The notes below the pieces were generated by a model, which had not been told where the DNA came from, ran no database searches, and was given only the letters and a program-made list of their open reading frames with translations. From a virus, in the IMG/VR virus record IMGVR_UViG_3300031521_002449: 14,794 nucleotides of DNA, one strand, 5' to 3'. Numbering within the stretch: position 1 is the stretch's first letter; each line of letters begins with the position of its first letter. Below are positions 1,071-12,331 of the stretch, piece by piece. Made by a program: the position numbers and the translations under genes.

Positions 1071-1242
1071 TTATATGTTAAATTTTATTTGATTTATTAT
1101 TATTAACAATTCTTCTTTACATTCTTCTATATTATCAGATGTAAATATTATTGAATCTATCCCATCTATTTCTATAGATCCTTCTGTTTTTATTAAGTAT
1201 TGTTTCAAAATCATCGTTTTCAAATGTTTTAATATATTTCAT
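1071..1242 (-). pseudogene. frameshifted or truncated member of the MKYIK...KFNI tandem family
   Basis: Minus strand reads ATG AAA TAT ATT AAA ACA TTT GAA (MKYIKTFEND...), then stops after 35 codons. A +1 frame continues ...EGSIEIDGIDSIIFTSDNIEECKEELLIIINQIKFNI* and ends with the family C-terminus. The frame switch must lie near the A5 run in TAATAAAAACAGAAGG. Confidence 0.35.
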
Positions 1243-1243
1243 A

Positions 1244-1714
1244 TTAAATATTATATTTTTTTGAATCTTTTTTAATTTCTAACTCTTCCATCAATGAGCC
1301 TTTAATATAACTATAAACTCTAACCTTAAAATCAGGCGAAGTTTTAGTATTATTATAATTTGTAAATAACGTGTGCCATATATTTTCATTATCAATTTTT
1401 ACTAAAATATCAGAATCATGATATTTTGGATTTTCAAATTTAACATCTTTACATATACCAATAATGCTATGTTTTTTTTGATCGTGCGGATTTTCATTAG
1501 AAAAATCTAAGCTGTAACACCAAGTACATTGAAATGCTATTTGTTTGTTTATTATAATTTCTTTAGCCAGATCATAAAAATCAACGTTATAGTTTCTACA
1601 ATCTTCTTTTAAATTCTTTAAACTAAATGATTTATATGATTTATCTTTAATTTTAGAGAATTCATCTCTAATTGGTTGTTTTTGATGTATAAATAGTTCG
1701 TATAATTTTATCAT
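1244..1714 (-). CDS. tandem-family protein, 156 aa (N-term MIKLYELF, C-term KKYNI)
   Basis: ORF in the minus-strand array. ATGA overlap with the upstream member. Ends with the KYNI family tail. Confidence 0.55.
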   Translation of the reverse strand: MIKLYELFIHQKQPIRDEFSKIKDKSYKSFSLKNLKEDCRNYNVDFYDLAKEIIINKQIAFQCTWCYSLDFSNENPHDQKKHSIIGICKDVKFENPKYHDSDILVKIDNENIWHTLFTNYNNTKTSPDFKVRVYSYIKGSLMEELEIKKDSKKYNI

Positions 1715-2193
1715 ATATTGTATTTTTCAACTTTCTTTTTAAATTTTACTTCTTTATGTAATGGTTTTGTATCAGCATCGTAATCATAAATTGAAACTAT
1801 TGAATCACTATCTACTAAAAAAGATTTATCTGAAAGTGGAGTAAAATCTATATATTTTTCACCACTTAAAATTTGTATATTTGATAATGTAACATTAATA
1901 TAAAAATCATCTTTATAGTAAAGACAATCAACATCTTTCACCTTACCTTTTATTATTGGGTTATTTATAAGTTTATTTATATTTTTAAATATAATAGTTT
2001 TATTTATTAAAATTTCCTTGAAAAAATTTATAACATTTATATTATAAATACTCTCTAAAGTATAATCTTCATCAAATTCTTCACTATCAAGACTGACACC
2101 TAAATATTTAATAACATCATTAATGAAAAATTGATCTTTACCAAGCATATAATTATTTTCTACACCTTCAAATATTTTAAATTTTGTTATCAT
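1711..2193 (-). CDS. tandem-family protein, 160 aa (N-term MITKFKIFE, C-term EKYNI)
   Basis: ORF in the array with ATGA overlaps on both sides and the family tail. Confidence 0.55.
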   Translation of the reverse strand: MITKFKIFEGVENNYMLGKDQFFINDVIKYLGVSLDSEEFDEDYTLESIYNINVINFFKEILINKTIIFKNINKLINNPIIKGKVKDVDCLYYKDDFYINVTLSNIQILSGEKYIDFTPLSDKSFLVDSDSIVSIYDYDADTKPLHKEVKFKKKVEKYNI

Positions 2194-2417
2194 AGTTTTT
2201 TTATCGTATCTTTAATAGTATCATTTTTAACATATAATAAGTATTCACCTTTATTTGTTGTAAGGTTATAAATAGAATGACCTTCATTAATAGCGGTTAT
2301 AATTTCAAGATATTCATCTATTTCTTCTTTAGATAATTTATAACTTTTTGACAATTCTTTCAACGCCATTTCTTTTGTAATTTCTTCAGTTTTCAGAATT
2401 TCTGTTTTTTTCTTCAT
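2190..2417 (-). CDS. hypothetical protein, 75 aa, embedded in the array (no KYNI tail)
   Basis: ORF with ATGA overlap downstream and a 3-nt spacer upstream. K/E-rich, probably helical. Confidence 0.45.
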   Translation of the reverse strand: MKKKTEILKTEEITKEMALKELSKSYKLSKEEIDEYLEIITAINEGHSIYNLTTNKGEYLLYVKNDTIKDTIKKL

Positions 2418-2420
2418 ATA

Positions 2421-3152
2421 TTATATATTATATTTTATAAATTTCTTTCTAAGATTATATCTTTCAAATTTTTCTGGAAATTTTTCTTGTAATTCCTTAA
2501 TCTTTTTTATATCACCATTACTTGATAAATTAGATATAAAATCATCTCCTCTATCATCTTTAATACCCCAATCTGCATCTAATTCTATTAATTTATCAAC
2601 AATAGAAAAATTATCTTTTCTATGTTTCTCATTTGTAGCTTTCATTAAAGCTGTTCTTCCAAATGAATCTTGAATATCTAAGTTCGCGCCATATTTAACA
2701 AACAAGTTAATTATTTTAATTATTTGTGATGGTCTACCATTTGATGATAATATTGCAATCATCAATGGTGTTCTACTAGATTTATTTTGAACATTCGCAT
2801 TTGCGCCTTTCCTCAACAAACTTTCAATTTTTTTGATATTTAAACCATGAATTACATCAAACAATTTATTACTATCTACAGAATCATATATTGAAGATTC
2901 AGACAATTTTTTCTTAAAATTTTTATGAATTAAATATTTAACATATTTGTATATTTCTTTAGAATTTAGCAAATCAATACCATAATCATTATAAATATAA
3001 TGTATTATAAATTCTAGAACATGATCTTCAGTTAATGATTGATGTACATTAACAATATTTTTTATAGCCTTTCTATATAATATTGGAAATAGACTGGCTA
3101 TAAATTTTAGATTATTTGTTCCTTCTTTATATAATTCAAATTTGATTATCAT
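2421..3152 (-). CDS. ankyrin-repeat protein carrying the family termini (MIIKFELYKE ... KFIKYNI)
   Basis: Central ANK signatures: LLRKGANANVQNKSSRTPLMIA, LFVKYGANLDIQDSFGRTALMKA, LIELDADWGIKDDRGDDFIS (G-TPLH/ALM--A, GA-ID motifs). Embedded in the array with ATGA overlap. Confidence 0.7.
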   Translation of the reverse strand: MIIKFELYKEGTNNLKFIASLFPILYRKAIKNIVNVHQSLTEDHVLEFIIHYIYNDYGIDLLNSKEIYKYVKYLIHKNFKKKLSESSIYDSVDSNKLFDVIHGLNIKKIESLLRKGANANVQNKSSRTPLMIAILSSNGRPSQIIKIINLFVKYGANLDIQDSFGRTALMKATNEKHRKDNFSIVDKLIELDADWGIKDDRGDDFISNLSSNGDIKKIKELQEKFPEKFERYNLRKKFIKYNI

Positions 3153-3559
3153 ATGTTATATTTGTCTATTTCTATCTCAGTATTTATATTTTTTAATCTA
3201 TTTATCAATTCTATCATTTTTTCTTCTGATCCTATATACATATTACTAGTTGGGTATTCTTTTAATAAACCTATTTCATTTGCAATTTTTTTATATTTTT
3301 CTACTTTTATTTTTTCTGATGGTAATATACCGTCAGTAACATAAATAGAATATAACATTGTATTACCTGTATAATCAATATAATTTGATGTATAATATTG
3401 TTCTGTATCTGCCTTAAGATATTTAACTTTTTCTACTCCACAACTAATATTATTGTTTTTATCAGCAAAAACTTTATTTAATGAATATCTTAATTTATTA
3501 ACAAATTTTTTATTTTCTTCACTATATTGTAATGCATCATATGTTTTTATATATTTCAT
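3149..3559 (-). CDS. tandem-family protein, 136 aa (MKYIKTYD ... DKYNI)
   Basis: ORF with ATGA overlaps and both conserved termini. Confidence 0.6.
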   Translation of the reverse strand: MKYIKTYDALQYSEENKKFVNKLRYSLNKVFADKNNNISCGVEKVKYLKADTEQYYTSNYIDYTGNTMLYSIYVTDGILPSEKIKVEKYKKIANEIGLLKEYPTSNMYIGSEEKMIELINRLKNINTEIEIDKYNI

Positions 3560-4029
3560 ATGTTAAATTTGCTCTTAGTTTTATACATTTCTGAATCTAG
3601 ATCTAAATAAACTATAACTTCTTCATCTACATTATAATAGTCTTCTTCATTATCTATTTTTATACTTATATATTCAAATTGGAATATACTATCGTTTTTA
3701 CTATCCTCTGTAAAAGGACCTGATTCAAATGAAACATTAGTACATAATCCATAATGTGATCCAAAATCAGGATCATTAAAAGATATAACTTTATTTTCTA
3801 TTAAGTTTCTAACTAAAGTTATATATTCTGTTTCCATATCTGATACAATTTTATTATCATCAGGTATAGAATACCCACCTCTTGTTAATTTTTTATTTTC
3901 TCTTACTTTATTAGCATGATTTTCCATTTCAAAAATAAGTTGATGTAAATTAATATATAAATTTCCATCTTTTTCAATTATATTTTTCCATCTATAACCG
4001 TAGTCTTCAAATGTTTTTATATATTTCAT
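3556..4029 (-). CDS. tandem-family protein, 157 aa (MKYIKTFE ... SKFNI)
   Basis: ORF with ATGA overlaps and both conserved termini. Confidence 0.6.
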   Translation of the reverse strand: MKYIKTFEDYGYRWKNIIEKDGNLYINLHQLIFEMENHANKVRENKKLTRGGYSIPDDNKIVSDMETEYITLVRNLIENKVISFNDPDFGSHYGLCTNVSFESGPFTEDSKNDSIFQFEYISIKIDNEEDYYNVDEEVIVYLDLDSEMYKTKSKFNI

Positions 4030-4340
4030 ACGTTGTACTTTTTAATATTTTCTATTTGATCATCAAATTCTTCTTCATCCTCAATTAAGTTTCCTAAACC
4101 GTCATAAAGTTCATAACTATAATGATTTGCACCTTCACCAGTTTCATTAATATATTCTTCTATTCCATAATGAATACAACTATCTCTATCATCTGGCACT
4201 TTATAATAATTTTGATAATAGTTAGTATTTTCTATTCTTTTCATTGATACTTCAAAGCTACCATCAAAAGTAACCTTCAATATCTTATCAGCAGGATTAT
4301 ATGATCCTTCTAATGATTCATTGAATCTTTTAATTTTCAT
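4026..4340 (-). CDS. tandem-family protein, head of array 1, 104 aa (MKIKRFNES ... KKYNV)
   Basis: First gene downstream of the divergent intergenic region 4341-4425. Variant leader and tail. Confidence 0.55.
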   Translation of the reverse strand: MKIKRFNESLEGSYNPADKILKVTFDGSFEVSMKRIENTNYYQNYYKVPDDRDSCIHYGIEEYINETGEGANHYSYELYDGLGNLIEDEEEFDDQIENIKKYNV

Positions 4341-4961: not shown

Positions 4962-5159
4962 ATGAGTAAATTGAATGGAAAAATAAAATTTTTTTCCGAA
5001 AAAGGATTTGGTTTCATCAAGGAAAATGAAACAAATATGGAATATTTTGTTCACGTAAGTGGATTAATAGATACCGTATATGAAAATGATGAGGTTACTT
5101 TTGAGTTAATTGAAGGTAAAAAAGGTTTGAACGCTATAAATGTACAACTTGTAGATTAA
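4962..5159 (+). CDS. cold-shock domain protein (CspA family)
   Basis: GKIKFFSEKGFGFI (RNP1-like KGFGFI) and FVHVSG (RNP2-like), then VTFELIEGKKGLNAINV. This aligns closely to E. coli CspA (GIVKWFNADKGFGFI ... VFVHFSAI ... VSFTIESGAKGPAAGNV). 65 aa. Confidence 0.85.
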   Translation: MSKLNGKIKFFSEKGFGFIKENETNMEYFVHVSGLIDTVYENDEVTFELIEGKKGLNAINVQLVD

Positions 5160-5576: not shown

Positions 5577-5993
5577 TTATATTGATTCACTATATACAAA
5601 ATTTTTCAAAGGTAAGAACAAATTTTCTGGAAATTCATTATACTTGAAAAATTTCCATTCTTCACATTTATCTGGCTCAGCAATTTTTAGATTTTTAAGT
5701 TCTTTTTTTCCAATATTTTCTACTTCATATATAACTGTAATATAATGAGTTTCTTCATCAAACACAGCATTTGTAACTCCAGCAAGTTTAAGTTTATTAG
5801 TTGTTGTAGTTAAATTAGTTTCTTCTTTCAATTCTCTTATTGCACAGTCTTTCAATTCTTCGCCAAAATCAAGTTTTCCACCTGGTAATCCCCAAGTATG
5901 ATAACCTAAATTGATATTTTTTCTGTAGCCAAGTAAGATTTCACCTTTTTCATTTCTTACTATTACTGCTACTCCTACTCTCGGATTGTTCAT
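5577..5993 (-). CDS. NUDIX hydrolase
   Basis: Nudix box GKLDFGEELKDCAIRELKEETNL fits Gx5Ex7REUxEExGU, with N in place of the last G. The preceding RVGVAVIVRNEKGEILLGYR is the typical beta-strand region. 138 aa. Confidence 0.75.
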   Translation of the reverse strand: MNNPRVGVAVIVRNEKGEILLGYRKNINLGYHTWGLPGGKLDFGEELKDCAIRELKEETNLTTTTNKLKLAGVTNAVFDEETHYITVIYEVENIGKKELKNLKIAEPDKCEEWKFFKYNEFPENLFLPLKNFVYSESI

Positions 5994-7113: not shown

Positions 7114-8082
7114 ATGACACACAACAGAATGTTGGACCGTGCTCCCTCGGTCGTGATTACTAGTAATCGTAATGAATTAAAGGTTTATCAAGGAAACAAT
7201 GTTTACCTAAACAATGGTGATAACTTTGAACTAAGGTTTTTTAACCCATTAAATGAAAAATTAGGAGTTGAAATTAATTTCAACGGAATGAAAAAAGGTA
7301 ACGGCTATTTAGTCTTAAATCCAGGACAAGATATAGTCTTAGACCGTTTTTTAGATGAACAACGAAAAATGTTATTTGAAACTTATACTGTAGATGGTAA
7401 CAACGAAGAAGCAGTTAAAGCAATTGAAAAAAATGGTATAATTACATTTAATTTCTTCAAAGAATATGGTTCTTATATGCCTAAAGATGTAAATATAAAT
7501 TATGCTTTTCCACCTAAGCCTCGTAAATATGATGCTAATAGATATTCTAAAAGTATGAATTATTATAATTCAGGCACATCAGGGAATTCTGGAATATCAG
7601 GTAATTCTGGAACATCTGGCAGTTGTGGAACTGGTGGAAATGGTGGATTTTCAACAAATAATTTTAATTATACTGCACCTGGAGTTTTTTTCTCTGAAAA
7701 GGATTTTTCAACGTCTATATCAAATACTATGTTTTCTGCGGATTTATCAAGAGGTATATCATCAACTATCACAAATACTGTACATATCGATAAAGATTAT
7801 TGGTTTCCGTCATCAAGCAGTAACATTTCAGCAGTATTACCAACAATAGATAATTTAGAAACAGGAAGAATAGAAATGGGAGAAATATCAAAACAACAAT
7901 TAAAAACTATTAATGCTCAATTTTGTTCAACACCTATTCATACTGTAACATATCAACTATTACCTATTTCAGCAATGAATCGTACTATTAGTGAAGTTCG
8001 TCAATATTGTCCAGAATGTGGATATCGTTTAAGAAAAGAAACTTGGCATTTTTGTCCAAAATGTGGTGAAGATTTAAAATAA
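7114..8082 (+). CDS. protein with beta-rich N-domain, Gly/Ser-rich tandem-repeat linker, S/T/N-rich region and C-terminal zinc ribbon (CPECGYRLRKETWHFCPKCG)
   Basis: 322-aa ORF. C-terminal CxxC-x13-CxxC. Internal 18-nt periodic repeat encoding GTSGNS/GISGNS/GTSGSC/GTGGNG. Followed 14 nt later by the vWA gene. Confidence 0.55.
   Translation: MTHNRMLDRAPSVVITSNRNELKVYQGNNVYLNNGDNFELRFFNPLNEKLGVEINFNGMKKGNGYLVLNPGQDIVLDRFLDEQRKMLFETYTVDGNNEEAVKAIEKNGIITFNFFKEYGSYMPKDVNINYAFPPKPRKYDANRYSKSMNYYNSGTSGNSGISGNSGTSGSCGTGGNGGFSTNNFNYTAPGVFFSEKDFSTSISNTMFSADLSRGISSTITNTVHIDKDYWFPSSSSNISAVLPTIDNLETGRIEMGEISKQQLKTINAQFCSTPIHTVTYQLLPISAMNRTISEVRQYCPECGYRLRKETWHFCPKCGEDLK
7572..7646 (+). repeat. 4 copies of an 18-nt tandem repeat (GGNANNTCNGGNAATTCT-like) inside the CDS
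   Basis: ggcacatcagggaattct / ggaatatcaggtaattct / ggaacatctggcagttgt / ggaactggtggaaatggt, read directly from the sequence. Confidence 0.7.
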
Positions 8083-8096
8083 AAATAATAGAAAAT

Positions 8097-8705
8097 ATGA
8101 AAAAGATTGATATAATATGTATATTAGATATGTCTGGTTCTATGAGTTCTATTATAGCCAAGGCAAGAGAAGGATTTAATCAATTCTTAAAAGAACAACA
8201 ACAAAGTGAAAATAATATCAAATTCTCATTATTATTTTTTGATACAGATTTTTATATGCCATATAAAAATATTAATATTAAAAAAGTAAAACCAGTGAAT
8301 GAAGATACTTATTATTCTCGTGGTGGTACGGCATTACTAGACGCTATTGGGTTTTCAATAGAGTCATATTTAGATGATTTAGCATTAATACCGAAAAATA
8401 AAAGGGCAAATAAAACACTATTTGTTATTCTTACTGATGGAGAAGAAAATAGTTCAAAAATTTATCATAGAGACTTAATAAAATTAATGGTAGAACAAAT
8501 GCAGGAAGAATTTAATTTTGGATTTATTTACCTAGGAGCAAATCAGGATTCTTGCTTTCAAGCAGAATCTATGGGAATGAATAGAAGTAATGCTTTTAAC
8601 TATGATGCCACTAACGATGGAATAACAGTCGCATATTCAAAAATATCAGAAGCGGCAACATACTACGCTAGTAATAACGTAAAAGATAATTTATTCCAGC
8701 AATAA
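8097..8705 (+). CDS. von Willebrand factor type A (vWA) domain protein with an intact MIDAS
   Basis: DMSGSM (DxSxS), GGTALLDAI (MIDAS Thr), ILTDGEEN (MIDAS Asp), in the canonical order and spacing. 202 aa. Confidence 0.8.
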   Translation: MKKIDIICILDMSGSMSSIIAKAREGFNQFLKEQQQSENNIKFSLLFFDTDFYMPYKNINIKKVKPVNEDTYYSRGGTALLDAIGFSIESYLDDLALIPKNKRANKTLFVILTDGEENSSKIYHRDLIKLMVEQMQEEFNFGFIYLGANQDSCFQAESMGMNRSNAFNYDATNDGITVAYSKISEAATYYASNNVKDNLFQQ

Positions 8706-8735
8706 TTAAAAAGAGTGTTGATACAAAATAACCTG

Positions 8736-8766
8736 AAAAGGTGAATCAAACTGATTCACCTTTTTT
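8736..8766 (+). terminator. intrinsic terminator AAAAGGTGAATC-aaact-GATTCACCTTTTTT
   Basis: Stem of 8-12 bp plus a T6 run, 30 nt after the vWA stop. Confidence 0.6.
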
Positions 8767-8977
8767 ACATAAATGGAAAAAAGTGACATTTTTTATTTTA
8801 TATATAGAATAAAAAAGAATTTGCTAATATCTAAAGATATTAAAATAAATATAACAAATAGAAATATAAAATTTTATATAAAAATACCAGATATATCACC
8901 AGAAGAAATATGCAAATTAGAAAATTTATGTTTTACAAAAAGAACAATAAATTCAAAAAAACAAGAAAGTTGTGATT

Positions 8978-9130
8978 ATGAAAGAAAAGAAAAAAATTAG
9001 TATTCATTTTACTATAGATAAAGTAATAAACGAATCCTTTGATAGATTAATTAAAAATGAATGTTTAAATAAATCATTATTAATACAGACATTAATTGAG
9101 AAATATATAAAAGAAAAGGAAGTCAATTGA
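8978..9130 (+). CDS. putative ribbon-helix-helix (CopG/Arc-like) DNA-binding protein, 50 aa
   Basis: Hand-translated: MKEKKKISIHFTIDKVINESFDRLIKNECLNKSLLIQTLIEKYIKEKEVN. The pattern of an N-terminal beta-strand (KISIHFTID) followed by two amphipathic helices is characteristic of RHH regulators. Flanked by terminators. Confidence 0.4.
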   Translation: MKEKKKISIHFTIDKVINESFDRLIKNECLNKSLLIQTLIEKYIKEKEVN

Positions 9131-9140
9131 CTTCCTTTTT
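9114..9140. terminator. bidirectional terminator: perfect 18-bp palindrome GGAAGTCAATTGACTTCC with an A-run upstream and a T-run downstream
   Basis: Located between the RHH gene stop (9130, inside the stem) and the end of minus-strand array 2 (9140). Confidence 0.55.
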
Positions 9141-9493
9141 CATAAATTATATTTTTTTGTCATATCAAACAAATATGCATATTTTTTAATTTTATATTCT
9201 GGAACTTTAACATCTATTTGAGATGACCCCATGTGTAATTTTTCATTTTTAACTTTTAACTTTAAACTTTTAAGAAAATTGTAAAATCTATCATAAATCT
9301 CTTCTTCTGTAAAATCAAAAAAATAAAATGTAAAATATTCTTTATATAACCCGTTATTATCGTCAAATAGACATTCACTAAATCCTTCTTCTTTAGTAAT
9401 AGGAATTATATCCTCAAAATATAAGCAAACAGAAGTTAGAATATCTTCTCTTTCTTTTGATATGATATAATTCTCAAATATTTTAATTTTCAT
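9140..9493 (-). CDS. tandem-family protein, last of array 2, 117 aa (MKIKIFENY ... KKYNL)
   Basis: ORF with ATGA overlap to the upstream member. Tail is a KYNL variant. Confidence 0.55.
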   Translation of the reverse strand: MKIKIFENYIISKEREDILTSVCLYFEDIIPITKEEGFSECLFDDNNGLYKEYFTFYFFDFTEEEIYDRFYNFLKSLKLKVKNEKLHMGSSQIDVKVPEYKIKKYAYLFDMTKKYNL

Positions 9494-9807
9494 ATATTAT
9501 ATTTGATTGATAATTTTTTTGCTTCGTACTCTTCAATTTCTTTTGGTGTTAATTTTCTCTCAATTATATTTTTATTATCGTATAAAACATTGAGTTTATC
9601 ATCTGCAATTATTTCAAACTTTAGATTAAAGAAATCATCTTCTGTATTATTACCAACTATTTGAGCAAAATTAAATATTTTATATCCATTAGGCAATTGG
9701 GGGGTAGGCATAAACCAACTTTTTATGTTAGAATCTTCAAGTTTAACATAATCTCCTATTTGGAAATTTTCTATCCAACGATCTTCAAATTGTTTTATAT
9801 ATTTCAT
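9490..9807 (-). CDS. tandem-family protein, 105 aa (MKYIKQFE ... IKYNI)
   Basis: ATGA overlaps and both conserved termini. Confidence 0.6.
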   Translation of the reverse strand: MKYIKQFEDRWIENFQIGDYVKLEDSNIKSWFMPTPQLPNGYKIFNFAQIVGNNTEDDFFNLKFEIIADDKLNVLYDNKNIIERKLTPKEIEEYEAKKLSIKYNI

Positions 9808-10148
9808 ATGTTAAATTTTTTTGATTCTGACATTAATTTTGCGACATTTATACAATCTTGTAAATTATCCGATTCATATAATATTTCTTTTTCTTTATAT
9901 GGTCTATCTGTTACAAAATGTTTGAAGGACTGTTCAAGTGTCAATTTTTTATTTAAACCATCATATATTGCATGTCTTTTAGATCTGAAAAATATTCTCT
10001 CTTCAACATTTTTTCTATTCGGTTCTCTATATATATTTAACACTTCAAACACAACGTATATATCAAAAAAATGTGGCTGGTCTTGCCATATAACATATTT
10101 TTTAAGTTTTGGCAATTCTATTGATTCAAATTTTTTAATATACTTCAT
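9804..10148 (-). CDS. tandem-family protein, 114 aa (MKYIKKFE ... KKFNI)
   Basis: ATGA overlaps and both conserved termini. Confidence 0.6.
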   Translation of the reverse strand: MKYIKKFESIELPKLKKYVIWQDQPHFFDIYVVFEVLNIYREPNRKNVEERIFFRSKRHAIYDGLNKKLTLEQSFKHFVTDRPYKEKEILYESDNLQDCINVAKLMSESKKFNI

Positions 10149-10417
10149 ATGTTATATTTGTTTGCAATATATTCTTCTTCTGGTACTAATTTTAATTTTT
10201 TACCAGATACCCAATATTTATTATTTTTATTTTCAATTTGATATGGTTGATAATCATCTTCAGTATTTATAGCAACTATTTGCATAATAATAGTTGCTAA
10301 TGGATTATTCATTTTAACATGATCACCAATTTTATATCTATATGCTAGTAATAATTCAGAGTTTTCTTCTTTATTAATAGCATCAATATATATTTCATAT
10401 ATTTTTATATGTTTCAT
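10145..10417 (-). CDS. tandem-family protein, 90 aa (MKHIKIYE ... NKYNI)
   Basis: ATGA overlaps and both conserved termini. Confidence 0.6.
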   Translation of the reverse strand: MKHIKIYEIYIDAINKEENSELLLAYRYKIGDHVKMNNPLATIIMQIVAINTEDDYQPYQIENKNNKYWVSGKKLKLVPEEEYIANKYNI

Positions 10418-10725
10418 ATGTTAAATTTTAATGCATTATTTTTTATATTTTGCAAATCTATTTCTTCTGGTGTAGCAAATCTAAAATACATTTTATAACT
10501 ACTTATTTCGTTATTACTATCTGTTATATAACCATTTTTTGGACTATTAGGATTAATATCATATCTAATTTTAATCATAGTTTTAGTAGATCCGACCACT
10601 TCCCCTACATTAGTAGTTACAAAATTTTTTGCAGCGGGAAGAACTGTTGGATAACTTGGTAATGCAATTACAAAGTCTTCTGATTCAAAGTCTTGAAATA
10701 TTTCATATGTTTTTATATATTTCAT
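10414..10725 (-). CDS. tandem-family protein, 103 aa (MKYIKTYE ... LKFNI)
   Basis: ATGA overlaps and both conserved termini. Confidence 0.6.
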   Translation of the reverse strand: MKYIKTYEIFQDFESEDFVIALPSYPTVLPAAKNFVTTNVGEVVGSTKTMIKIRYDINPNSPKNGYITDSNNEISSYKMYFRFATPEEIDLQNIKNNALKFNI

Positions 10726-11024
10726 ATGTTAAATTTATTTGTATCATCAAGTATTGATAACATAGAAATACAATCTTTCAATCTATGTGCTTCATATACC
10801 ACATTTATATTATTATAATTAAGATAAAATGTATTATTCATAGTACCATAATTATGTTTATCATTATATTTGAAATAATATTTTACCTCAGCACGAAGTT
10901 TGCCAGTTTCATATAATATGTTTATAATTTTTATAATATAATATTTATATCTATCAATAAAATCATCAACTTCTCCGTTGGTTACAATAAGAAATTTTGA
11001 TTCATATGTTTTTATATATTTCAT
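10722..11024 (-). CDS. tandem-family protein, 100 aa (MKYIKTYE ... NKFNI)
   Basis: ATGA overlaps and both conserved termini. Confidence 0.6.
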   Translation of the reverse strand: MKYIKTYESKFLIVTNGEVDDFIDRYKYYIIKIINILYETGKLRAEVKYYFKYNDKHNYGTMNNTFYLNYNNINVVYEAHRLKDCISMLSILDDTNKFNI

Positions 11025-12331
11025 ATATTAAATTTTGCAGCATTTGCTTTATATATGAATTGCTCATAATTTTCAAAATCATCCTCTGATTTTTCTTCTT
11101 TTAATCTATTTTCAAATTCAGGTGACACAAACCATTGTAATATTTCACCTTTATAAAATCTTGCAAGATTAAATAAATCTAATTTTTTGTTATCATAATC
11201 TATACGAACATCATAATCATAATTAAATTCTGCTTTATCAAAATTTTCCTTAAATGCTTCTAAATTATCTACTTCTATTAATTTTGGAAAAATATCATCT
11301 GGTGATATCATATAGTCATTTATAACATTATTAACTTCTTTTTTTAAATCTTCGAAATCTCCCATAAATTTATATTTATCTTCTTCAAATTCATATGATA
11401 AATCACTGGCTTCATAAATATTTTCTAAAAATTCTTTTATTGTTTTAACATTCATATTATGTTTTTTCATATATTCTATAATTGATTCATAATCAAATAC
11501 TAATTCAATATCAAAATCTCCTGTGTGTTCAAAACTCAACTCAAATGGTAACGATTTTATTAATGCTCTTGCAGCTTTATCAATAGCACGTTCATTTTCC
11601 ATTGCTATTTCCATTTTAAAATCATCCAATTCACTTTTTAATCCTAAATAATTAAATAATTTATGAATTTCATTTTCTTCACCTGGATCTATTTCATAAT
11701 TAAATAATTTAGAAAATTCTTTAATTTTATTTAATGTCTCTTCAGATAAATAAGAATAGATATAATCTAATTCATCATCATCAACATAATAATCTTGGCT
11801 ATTTCCATAAGAGCCAAAACTTAAAAGATGATTTATAATACCCTCTTCTAATTCCATTAAATCTTCTAATTTTCTAGACTTCATAAAAATGATTAGTTTA
11901 TCTTTATCATACTCTGGTTCATATCTATAATAACTACTAGATTTTGTTATGTATTCTTTTTCATCTAAACCTATATAATTAACAATATCTTCTGGTTTGA
12001 AATCTGGGGATTCTAATATTTGAATTAAATTTTGTTTATCATCATCTTCATCATCTGAATAACTTTCTTTAACAGGATTATTTCTCAAATATTCCGCTTG
12101 TTTTAATGTTTTAAAGCTTATTGATTTAAGTTTCTGTATTTTAGAATTTTTATCATTATTTAACTTTGTGCGTTTTGCTGGATCTTTTTCTCTACCTAAT
12201 CTTTTTCTATCACTTTTAATACCTTTTTGTAAATAAACAGCATTCTTTAATAAACCTTTTTTAACTTTGAAAGGTTTTGCTGAATTTATTGTTATTGGTT
12301 TAAAATTTTCGTATGTTTTGATATATTTCAT
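11021..12331 (-). CDS. large acidic tandem-family protein, head of array 2, 436 aa (MKYIKTYE ... AKFNI)
   Basis: Long ORF. It carries the family leader even though no gene lies upstream of it. D/E-rich interior (SYSDDEDDDKQ...). Confidence 0.65.
   Translation of the reverse strand: MKYIKTYENFKPITINSAKPFKVKKGLLKNAVYLQKGIKSDRKRLGREKDPAKRTKLNNDKNSKIQKLKSISFKTLKQAEYLRNNPVKESYSDDEDDDKQNLIQILESPDFKPEDIVNYIGLDEKEYITKSSSYYRYEPEYDKDKLIIFMKSRKLEDLMELEEGIINHLLSFGSYGNSQDYYVDDDELDYIYSYLSEETLNKIKEFSKLFNYEIDPGEENEIHKLFNYLGLKSELDDFKMEIAMENERAIDKAARALIKSLPFELSFEHTGDFDIELVFDYESIIEYMKKHNMNVKTIKEFLENIYEASDLSYEFEEDKYKFMGDFEDLKKEVNNVINDYMISPDDIFPKLIEVDNLEAFKENFDKAEFNYDYDVRIDYDNKKLDLFNLARFYKGEILQWFVSPEFENRLKEEKSEDDFENYEQFIYKANAAKFNI

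Follow-up and report, generated by a model that had tools for sequence, protein, structure and literature searches.

A fundamental question raised by the IMG/VR virus record IMGVR_UViG_3300031521_002449, a stretch of 14,794 nt referred to here as the window, is why the DNA that joins one small gene to the next reads nearly identically at junction after junction. A first-pass annotation had reported such a motif and described it as reaching from the upstream gene's codon −4 to the downstream gene's codon 8; both statements are confirmed here. The 26-mer TTTTATATATTTCATATGTTAAATTT is present in six copies at ≤3 mismatches in the window, where 0 are expected and 200 shuffles gave 0 matches, and the conservation profile shows nucleotide conservation from −12 to +24 around the ATG, with background level directly outside. 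On the plus strand the copies are exact at 3545-3570, 9793-9818 and 10711-10736, carry one mismatch at 10403-10428 and 11010-11035, and carry three at 10134-10159; the longest exact repeat is 33 nt (3538-3570 = 10704-10736). Every copy of the 26-mer is a 4-bp ATGA stop/start overlap between two minus-strand open reading frames (ORFs), such that the coding strand reads AAA TTT AAC ATA TGA overlapping ATG AAA TAT ATA AAA ACA T.T GAA. The main point, which the first-pass annotation missed, is that the motif is two conserved peptide tags set end to end: the upstream gene ends K-[FY]-N-[ILV]-stop, the downstream gene starts M-K-Y-I-K-x-[FY]-E, and the four bases ATGA are common to both. We consider it probable that the motif is the nucleotide image of two abutting peptide tags carried by many small tandem genes in hypervariable huge-phage arrays, and that these tags serve as an address or processing label. 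The junctions concerned are the following.

10702..10736, minus strand: focal junction, K F N I and the TGA of gene 10722-11024 followed by M K Y I K T Y E of gene 10414-10725, with ATGA overlap
3536..3570, minus strand: junction of gene 3556-4029 (..KSKFNI-stop) with gene 3149-3559 (MKYIKTYD..), holding the 33-nt exact copy of the focal junction
9784..9818, minus strand: junction of gene 9804-10148 (..SKKFNI-stop) with gene 9490-9807 (MKYIKQFE..)
10125..10159, minus strand: junction of gene 10145-10417 (..ANKYNI-stop) with gene 9804-10148 (MKYIKKFE..), three mismatches including synonymous AAG and ATT
10394..10428, minus strand: junction of gene 10414-10725 (..ALKFNI-stop) with gene 10145-10417 (MKHIKIYE..)
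11001..11035, minus strand: junction of gene 11021-12331 (..AAKFNI-stop, Asn codon AAT) with gene 10722-11024 (MKYIKTYE..)
4006..4040, minus strand: junction of gene 4026-4340 (..KKYNV-stop) with gene 3556-4029 (MKYIKTFE..)

More diverged junctions of the same kind are found at 1714, 3152, 4029 and 9493. The doubling of CATATGAAATAT within 10696-10742 that had been reported for the focal junction is present at both sites (10698-10709 and 10717-10728, minus strand). The second copy corresponds to codons 6-10 (T-Y-E-I-F) of gene 10414-10725, and its match is fortuitous, a result of the Thr-Tyr-Glu variant of the tag.

Is the junction itself the conserved entity, or are the two tags properties of the genes that happen to meet there? 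The tagged genes of the window, ~16 in number, lie in two minus-strand arrays (1071-4340 and 9140-12331) that together occupy ~44% of its length.

9140..12331, minus strand: array 1, seven tagged genes in one operon, every junction an ATGA overlap; in transcription order H 11021-12331 (436 aa), G 10722-11024, F 10414-10725, E 10145-10417, D 9804-10148, C 9490-9807 and B 9140-9493
9114..9139, minus strand: intrinsic terminator (hairpin plus T-run), directly 3' of the last array 1 gene
1071..4340, minus strand: array 2, with genes 4026-4340, 3556-4029, 3149-3559, 2421-3152, 2190-2417, 1711-2193, 1244-1714 and 1071-1242

Array 1 ends in the intrinsic terminator and is therefore a polycistronic operon. 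The consensus of the N-terminal tag is M-K-[YH]-[IL]-K-x-[FY]-E, and that of the C-terminal tag is ..(A/S/T)(N/K)K[FY]N[ILVM]-stop. Across the window and the first 24 loci recovered from related contigs, the N-terminal tag is present on 161 ORFs, the C-terminal tag on 175 and both on 149; in the enlarged set the C-terminal tag is carried by 233 of 300 unique strict N-tag proteins, and the related contigs hold at least 378 distinct tagged proteins. The first gene of each array (11021-12331 and 4026-4340) has the N-terminal tag with no gene upstream of it, and the last genes (9140-9493 and 1071-1223) have the C-terminal tag ahead of a terminator or gap. A ten-gene array at locus L043 keeps both tags across non-overlapping TAA-n-ATG junctions, the loci L028/L111 (501-kb contig) place 1-2 additional residues after KYNI before the overlap, and LR756500.1 (L025) pairs the N-terminal tag MKYIKEYEEF with a different C-terminal end, DDFGFFDN, in genes separated by intergenic spacers. 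The tags are thus shown to be attributes of single genes, independent of the junction, and their occurrence at array ends, across spaced junctions and together with another C-terminal end argues against a coupling element as the conserved entity. The L025 genes form a set of seven at 26351-31661 that open with MKYIKEYEEF.. and have spacers between them with no overlaps; most end (A)DDFGFFDN, and two of these are leucine-rich-repeat proteins.

Clustered by BLAST without their tags, the 378 unique tagged proteins form 149 families, and 106 of these are singletons. The largest interior family has 116 members of ~105 aa, to which genes 9490-9807 and 10414-10725 of array 1 belong, and its consensus is MKYIKxFE..(P)..GDYVI...NNIGKII...Y.V.Y.NIP...EI..WSKNKEDLE....NK[FY]NL. 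A database search at E≤1e-3 found 269 relatives of this core family; the 120 listed come from contigs as large as 711 kb, and all of them lack both a Pfam domain and an informative name. Neither PHROGs nor Pfam matched the small tagged proteins of the window, the core family has no match below E=0.1 among PDB sequences, and a tblastn search with one of its members against 50,697 deposited phage genomes returned no match. Other tagged proteins carry recognizable domains. Ankyrin repeats are found on gene 2421-3152 of the window (tags MIIKFELY..KYNI) and at L091, and leucine-rich repeats at L025 and L013; HAD_SAK_2, NUDIX and DUF4240 domains are found on further tagged proteins. At L106 10715-11941 (minus strand) the N-terminal tag is followed directly by an ART-PolyVal ADP-ribosyltransferase (ART) domain (2e-24) and a Tpt1/KptA-like region, and at L111 6478-7194 (minus strand), within a tagged array, it is followed by a weaker ART/DUF3990 match in a protein that ends KKYNIL. 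By these sequence matches, the tags are portable short linear motifs on differing folds, several of which are typical of conflict effectors.

Structure prediction is consistent with this. An AlphaFold2 model of the core family from a 118-sequence alignment, moderate overall with a predicted local distance difference test (pLDDT) score of 66, has a small beta-rich core and a C-terminal helix, with block-mean pLDDT of ~61-82 across core residues 11-96. Tag residues 1-10 and 97-105 score below 50, yet are among the best-conserved columns, and the tags are accordingly predicted to be unstructured. The top Foldseek matches to the core model are SH3-like barrels (FeoA, Tudor, KOW), none of them significant. 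An earlier AlphaFold run on gene 10414-10725 with a 4-sequence alignment reached a pLDDT of 48 and was uninformative.

If the tags are conserved as peptides, why does the DNA look so nearly invariant? The first-pass annotation held that identity at synonymous positions exceeds what the peptides require. Relatives for codon counts were obtained via the neighbouring gene for an MVP-like protein, so that the motif itself was not used, and provided 50 doubly tagged genes. Tag codons for Lys, Tyr, His, Phe and Glu match the interiors of the same genes (AAA 89%, TAT 93%, TTT 86%, GAA 93%), and the Ile4 codons, with ATA/ATT/ATC at 13/7/1, are similar to the interior. Codon 4 is also found as TTA, TTG or CTA (Leu), and codon 7 as TTT, TTC, TAT or TAC (Phe or Tyr), such that substitutions keep the amino-acid class (I/L, F/Y, E/D) and do not keep the nucleotides, a pattern that indicates selection on the peptide. 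The final upstream codon ends in A because the ATGA overlap forces it to do so. Most of the seeming synonymous conservation is extreme codon bias.

Three sites deviate. Thr6 is ACA in 13 of 13 genes (p=4e-4), Tyr7 is TAC in 7 of 15 (p=4e-5), which is more variation and not less, and Asn(−2) is AAC in 18 of 46 against 12% (p=3e-6). In this unbiased set AAC is found at 16 of 23 overlapping tag-tag junctions and at 8 of 44 sites elsewhere (Fisher p=5e-5). When all loci are counted, leaving out the junctions that had been found via the original pattern, the corresponding figures are 89/174 (51%) at tag-tag overlaps, 55/204 (27%) at other C-terminal tags and 10.8% at interior Asn (p=1.6e-6), and a sign test by locus has 16 loci higher and 6 lower (p=0.05). 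The excess is not a general start context, since ordinary starts seldom have C at position −3 (8%). A nucleotide-level effect at the junctions is therefore real but small. The earlier claim holds for the Asn AAC and Thr6 ACA codons and fails for most tag codons, which follow the interior bias, and the synonymous counts that had been proposed as a way of telling free variation from conservation beyond coding need fall between these two outcomes, with Asn near 50:50 AAC/AAT. Avoidance of an ATATAT/ATATAT hairpin across the start codon was considered as a reason for the use of AAC and rejected, since AAC is equally common where the downstream sequence cannot pair.

How could such tags be used? 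The nearest precedent for a shared leader on otherwise dissimilar proteins is found in T4 and the T-even phages, whose internal proteins are diverse small anti-defence proteins that have in common only a ~10-aa leader, MKTYQEFIAE, which directs them to the prohead core before it is removed by cleavage (PMC8442874, PMC3012670, PMC12373910). The T-even set includes IPI, IPII and IPIII and >30 variants, encoded at hyperplastic variable loci flanked by repeats (PMC3012670, PMC8442874, PMC12373910, PMC2839356). The tagged proteins of the huge phages are similar in that a leader of ~8-10 residues with an MK start, an aromatic residue and a Glu is carried by otherwise unrelated small phage proteins (here 378 unique proteins of 149 interior families) whose genes lie in highly variable hotspots. 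They differ in that the tagged set greatly exceeds the T-even one in size, each genome having dozens of such genes, and in that the repeated DNA is the coding junction itself and not a flanking regulatory element. T4 also packages and injects an ADP-ribosyltransferase (Alt), and its prohead protease gp21 has Leu/Ile-x-Glu as its cleavage site.

By this analogy we favour a sorting or processing function, in which the tags would mark a repertoire of diversifying effectors with short linear signals for their address or processing. Most likely they would direct sorting into the virion, with the leader removed after Glu8 as in T4 capsid targeting; Glu8 would be the candidate cleavage residue and K[FY]N[ILV] a second recognition element. 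The near-invariance of ~35 nt arises from codon bias (~86-93% for AAA, TAT, TTT and GAA), the final A forced by the overlap and purifying selection on the peptides. As a secondary effect, the homology between junctions would make it possible for entire cassettes to be lost, duplicated, moved or swapped in frame, and the same homology would homogenise the junctions, which may account for the residual synonymous excess and for dialects of the tags that are specific to a genome.

Several points weigh against this proposal. The presence of tagged proteins in the virion, or their cleavage, is a suggestion made by analogy, and the analogy is incomplete: the leader MKYIKxFE has no alignable homology to MKTYQEFIAE and by inspection has only the MK and the aromatic-plus-Glu flavour in common with it, and T4 has nothing equivalent to the additional conserved C-terminal tag. 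A Glu occupies position 8 in 39 of 50 genes, but position 6 is Thr, Lys or Phe and not the Leu/Ile of the gp21 site. The excess of AAC and ACA reveals an influence on the nucleotides themselves, to which mRNA-level selection may contribute. In a scan of 13 internal breakpoints described below, those in untagged regions also fall within 1-40 nt of ORF ends. The structural model is moderate, and the low confidence at its termini is weak evidence of disorder. Finally, the 116 members of the core family are genuine paralogues, so that part of the sharing of tags is common descent.

A bolder form of the proposal, which we put forward as a tentative possibility, is that the N- and C-terminal tags together form a bipartite sorting signal of a kind not yet described, which routes a large and fast-diversifying set of effectors into the virion or into a compartment built by the phage, and that the junction, where the two tags abut, doubles as an integron-like site of in-frame exchange at which any cassette could move with its label intact. 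The repertoire so routed would comprise SH3-like binders, ankyrin and leucine-rich-repeat proteins, ADP-ribosyltransferases and RNA-repair-type enzymes, and the hosts would probably be of Bacteroidetes type. Its modules (ART-PolyVal, Tpt1/KptA, HAD_SAK_2, NUDIX, ankyrin and leucine-rich repeat) are like those of polyvalent or injected effectors of the ART-PolyVal kind; unlike polyvalent proteins, in which modules are joined in one giant fusion, they are encoded here as separate small genes with common address tags. As regards attC-like features of integrons, no junction fold exceeds shuffles, and Pfam scans of selected window ORFs show no integrase domain.

An alternative hypothesis, raised in part by the first-pass annotation, is that the junction is primarily a DNA-level cassette border, kept by selection or gene conversion because it allows interiors to be exchanged, duplicated or lost, and that the tags are merely its translation. 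The junction is a 26-33-bp direct repeat that recurs about every 300 bp within an array, identical borders enclose unrelated interiors, and relatives whose MVP-like protein is 93-95% identical to that of the window have very different arrays. Gene 3149-3559 is missing from L027 exactly from junction to junction. Array 1, which reads H G F E D C B in the window, reads X H' D' F' Y Z at L026, where primes denote orthologues and X, Y and Z are genes without a window counterpart. Loci L009 and L013 match without a difference (100% identity) over 7.6 kb; the match ends 1-2 nt upstream of a tagged gene's start codon, with the relic ATATGAAATATT. Added to these are the AAC excess, which travels with tag-tag overlaps, the invariant ACA of Thr6 and the genome-specific dialects (KFNI, KYNL or KYNISL): use of F or Y in the C-terminal tag depends on the locus (chi2=198, p=1e-27), which indicates concerted evolution, whether by junction homogenisation, by lineage-specific expansion or by co-evolution with a reader protein.

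Nevertheless, this evidence does not make the border the likely cause of conservation. Asn is divided between AAC and AAT even at junctions, the other synonymous sites stay at background bias, replacements keep the residue class and not the nucleotides, the N-terminal tag is found without the C-terminal one, and tags are retained at array ends and over spacers, where a border pair is lacking. The breakpoints scored are not confined to the motif. The equivalent of array 1 at L027 consists of an H-F fusion and one short gene; the fusion (8370-8972, minus strand) joins the first ~107 residues of the 11021-12331 protein to the 10414-10725 protein (103 aa) from residue 10, and its joint is an interior shared microhomology, DF.xED(F/I)V. 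A systematic scan scored 13 internal events, one of them between >99% identical contigs, a number too small to tell tag junctions from ordinary gene boundaries, and proximity of breakpoints to ORF ends is general in these contigs. The comparison of relatives gave three clear junction cases, and the idea of recombination borders gains some support from junction-exact cassette changes and is weakened by the similar behaviour of untagged gene ends. Because the H-F fusion used interior microhomology and untagged ends break alike, junction recombination is treated as a by-product of the direct repeats and not the reason for their conservation, which is plausible from the sequences compared; a primary role as a border is on balance unlikely.

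PeSL cassettes are a further point of comparison. In these, short repeats bracket small non-essential ORFs, and where close relatives differ by an indel or a replacement, its ends lie in such repeats (PMC2839356, PMC4122927). The tag arrays are similar in having repeats around small ORFs in hyperplastic regions, but a PeSL is a non-coding promoter and terminator unit, whereas the tag junction is fully coding and lies inside an operon. No promoter or terminator signal or hairpin in the tag junctions exceeds shuffles, the sole terminator being the one after the last gene. Matches to a sigma-70 or T4-late-like promoter inside the tag are at chance level, and transcription from such a promoter would start downstream of the ATG; this candidate was rejected. 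Taken together, the tag system seems to resemble leader-tagged phage effector loci with PeSL-type shuffling, and it differs from them in its two tags, its scale and its use of the coding junction as the repeat.

Could the conserved stretch act in the RNA, by coupling translation or prompting re-initiation in a host without Shine-Dalgarno recognition? This was the other cause of conservation put forward in the first-pass annotation, and it is now very unlikely. The ATGA overlap is found at 214 of 378 unique C-tag contexts, most tagged genes overlap their neighbours in this way in terminator-ended operons as in ATGA translational coupling, untagged genes of the window and its relatives have no Shine-Dalgarno motif and are A-rich upstream of the start, and the synonymous C at −3 is enriched only at overlapping tag-tag junctions. 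In ATGA coupling, however, the overlap alone suffices, which leaves unexplained both the amino-acid-level conservation of 12 + 24 nt, reaching 24 nt into the downstream ORF, and the tags at uncoupled ends, on first and last genes and in arrays with TAA-n-ATG junctions or longer spacers. The distance from KYNI to the ATG shifts by 3-6 nt in L028/L111, the hairpin-avoidance test for AAC was negative, and no RNA fold at the junctions is stable or conserved above shuffled controls (z-scores −1.0 to +2.2). A CATATG palindrome is present at the junction and again at codons 6-7 (ACA TAT G) where position 7 is Tyr, for example at 10698-10728, and the resulting weak 6-bp mRNA hairpin, which encloses the start codon, is seen in the minimum-free-energy folds of two junctions; junctions with Phe at position 7 do not conserve it. 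AAATTTA was also considered as a slippery site for −1 frameshifting and is by inspection in the wrong phase (XXX YYY Z, not X XXY YYZ).

Least probable of all is ordinary paralogy, in which one recently expanded family would have slow-evolving structural termini and no signal function, for although the 116-member ~105-aa cluster with its common GDYV...NNIGKI...Y.NIP...KEELE core and its 269 relatives would suit such an origin, the tags also occur on ankyrin, leucine-rich-repeat, ART-PolyVal, NUDIX and other folds and on 106 singleton interiors, are modelled as unstructured (pLDDT <50) beside a folded core, and are conserved far above any core position.

In which phages are the tags found? The window has a GC content of 22-30% and ends within a gene that links it to very large genomes.

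12971-14794, plus strand: MVP-like gene, partial, truncated by the window end (Pfam MVP_shoulder 2e-24, Vault_3 4e-10)

The encoded protein matches parts of the 'uncultured phage' records LR756500, LR756501 and LR756503, of 462 kb and 735 kb, at 55-57% identity; it is ~800 aa long in relatives, with 54-95% identity across huge-phage contigs including these three. A protein of the vault-shell type is unusual in phages. A megablast search of the whole window against deposited phages gave a single match of 347 bp, inside this gene. The exact 28-mer junction is found in 24 IMG/VR contig stretches, on contigs of 23-330 kb (mostly 113-330 kb), a degenerate N-tag pattern has at least 120 matches in contigs of up to 501 kb, and a junction scan of 185,579 cellular genomes gave one match only, on a 4-kb contig of a metagenome-assembled genome. 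From the IMG/VR matches set against the single cellular match, the feature is assigned to a group of large, uncultured, AT-rich phages; related contigs that bear the tags have 20-27% GC and extend up to about 500-700 kb, and contig names suggest a lake hypolimnion as their source. A survey of huge phages reported a 735-kb genome as the largest and placed the largest genomes in the Mahaphage clade, with predicted Bacteroidetes hosts (PMC7162821). The absent Shine-Dalgarno motif and A-rich start contexts would fit a Bacteroidetes host. No description of the tag pair was met with in Pfam, PHROGs or the searchable literature, and no paper was found for 'MKYIK'.

Further features of these contigs may be noted. 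In array 2, gene 2190-2417 is untagged, and the tagged gene 1071-1242 (minus strand) is frameshifted: the ATG at 1242 opens MKYIKTFENDDFETILNKN.. and meets a stop after 35 codons, and the C-tagged remainder (..IIINQIKFNI-stop) is in another frame. The frameshift appears to sit at an A-run and could be a pseudogene lesion, a sequencing error or slippage. Between the two arrays, at 7114-8705 (plus strand), are two adjacent genes that are conserved in L026, one for a 322-aa protein that is Gly/Ser-rich in the middle and has a zinc ribbon at its C-terminus, the other for a 202-aa von Willebrand factor A domain protein. Auxiliary genes of an ordinary kind, at 274-747, 4962-5159 and 5577-5993, are scattered among the arrays and encode a 5'(3')-deoxyribonucleotidase (NT5C), a cold-shock domain protein and a NUDIX hydrolase. 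In the window neither Rfam, at gathering thresholds, nor a tRNA scan found a match. A second, unrelated tandem family is present at L030 13477-15229 (minus strand), where seven paralogues of ~75 aa with overlapping junctions start MFKVGDRVVC and end LMKCSK or QLECSK, and tandem arrays with conserved termini may be a general habit of these phages.

For the scanning of such genomes there is a caution here, as in a genome of 22% GC conserved peptides resemble conserved DNA. The function of huge-phage ORFans is almost wholly unexplored. If the tags are indeed a sorting or processing label, the rule MKYIKx[FY]E ... K[FY]N[ILV] could serve to identify candidate injected or targeted effectors of uncultured huge phages, and the tags would be a ready-made label for cargo loading. 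The arrays show how an address label can be held constant while its cargo diverges past recognition, and how repeats within coding sequence are able to serve as cassette borders.

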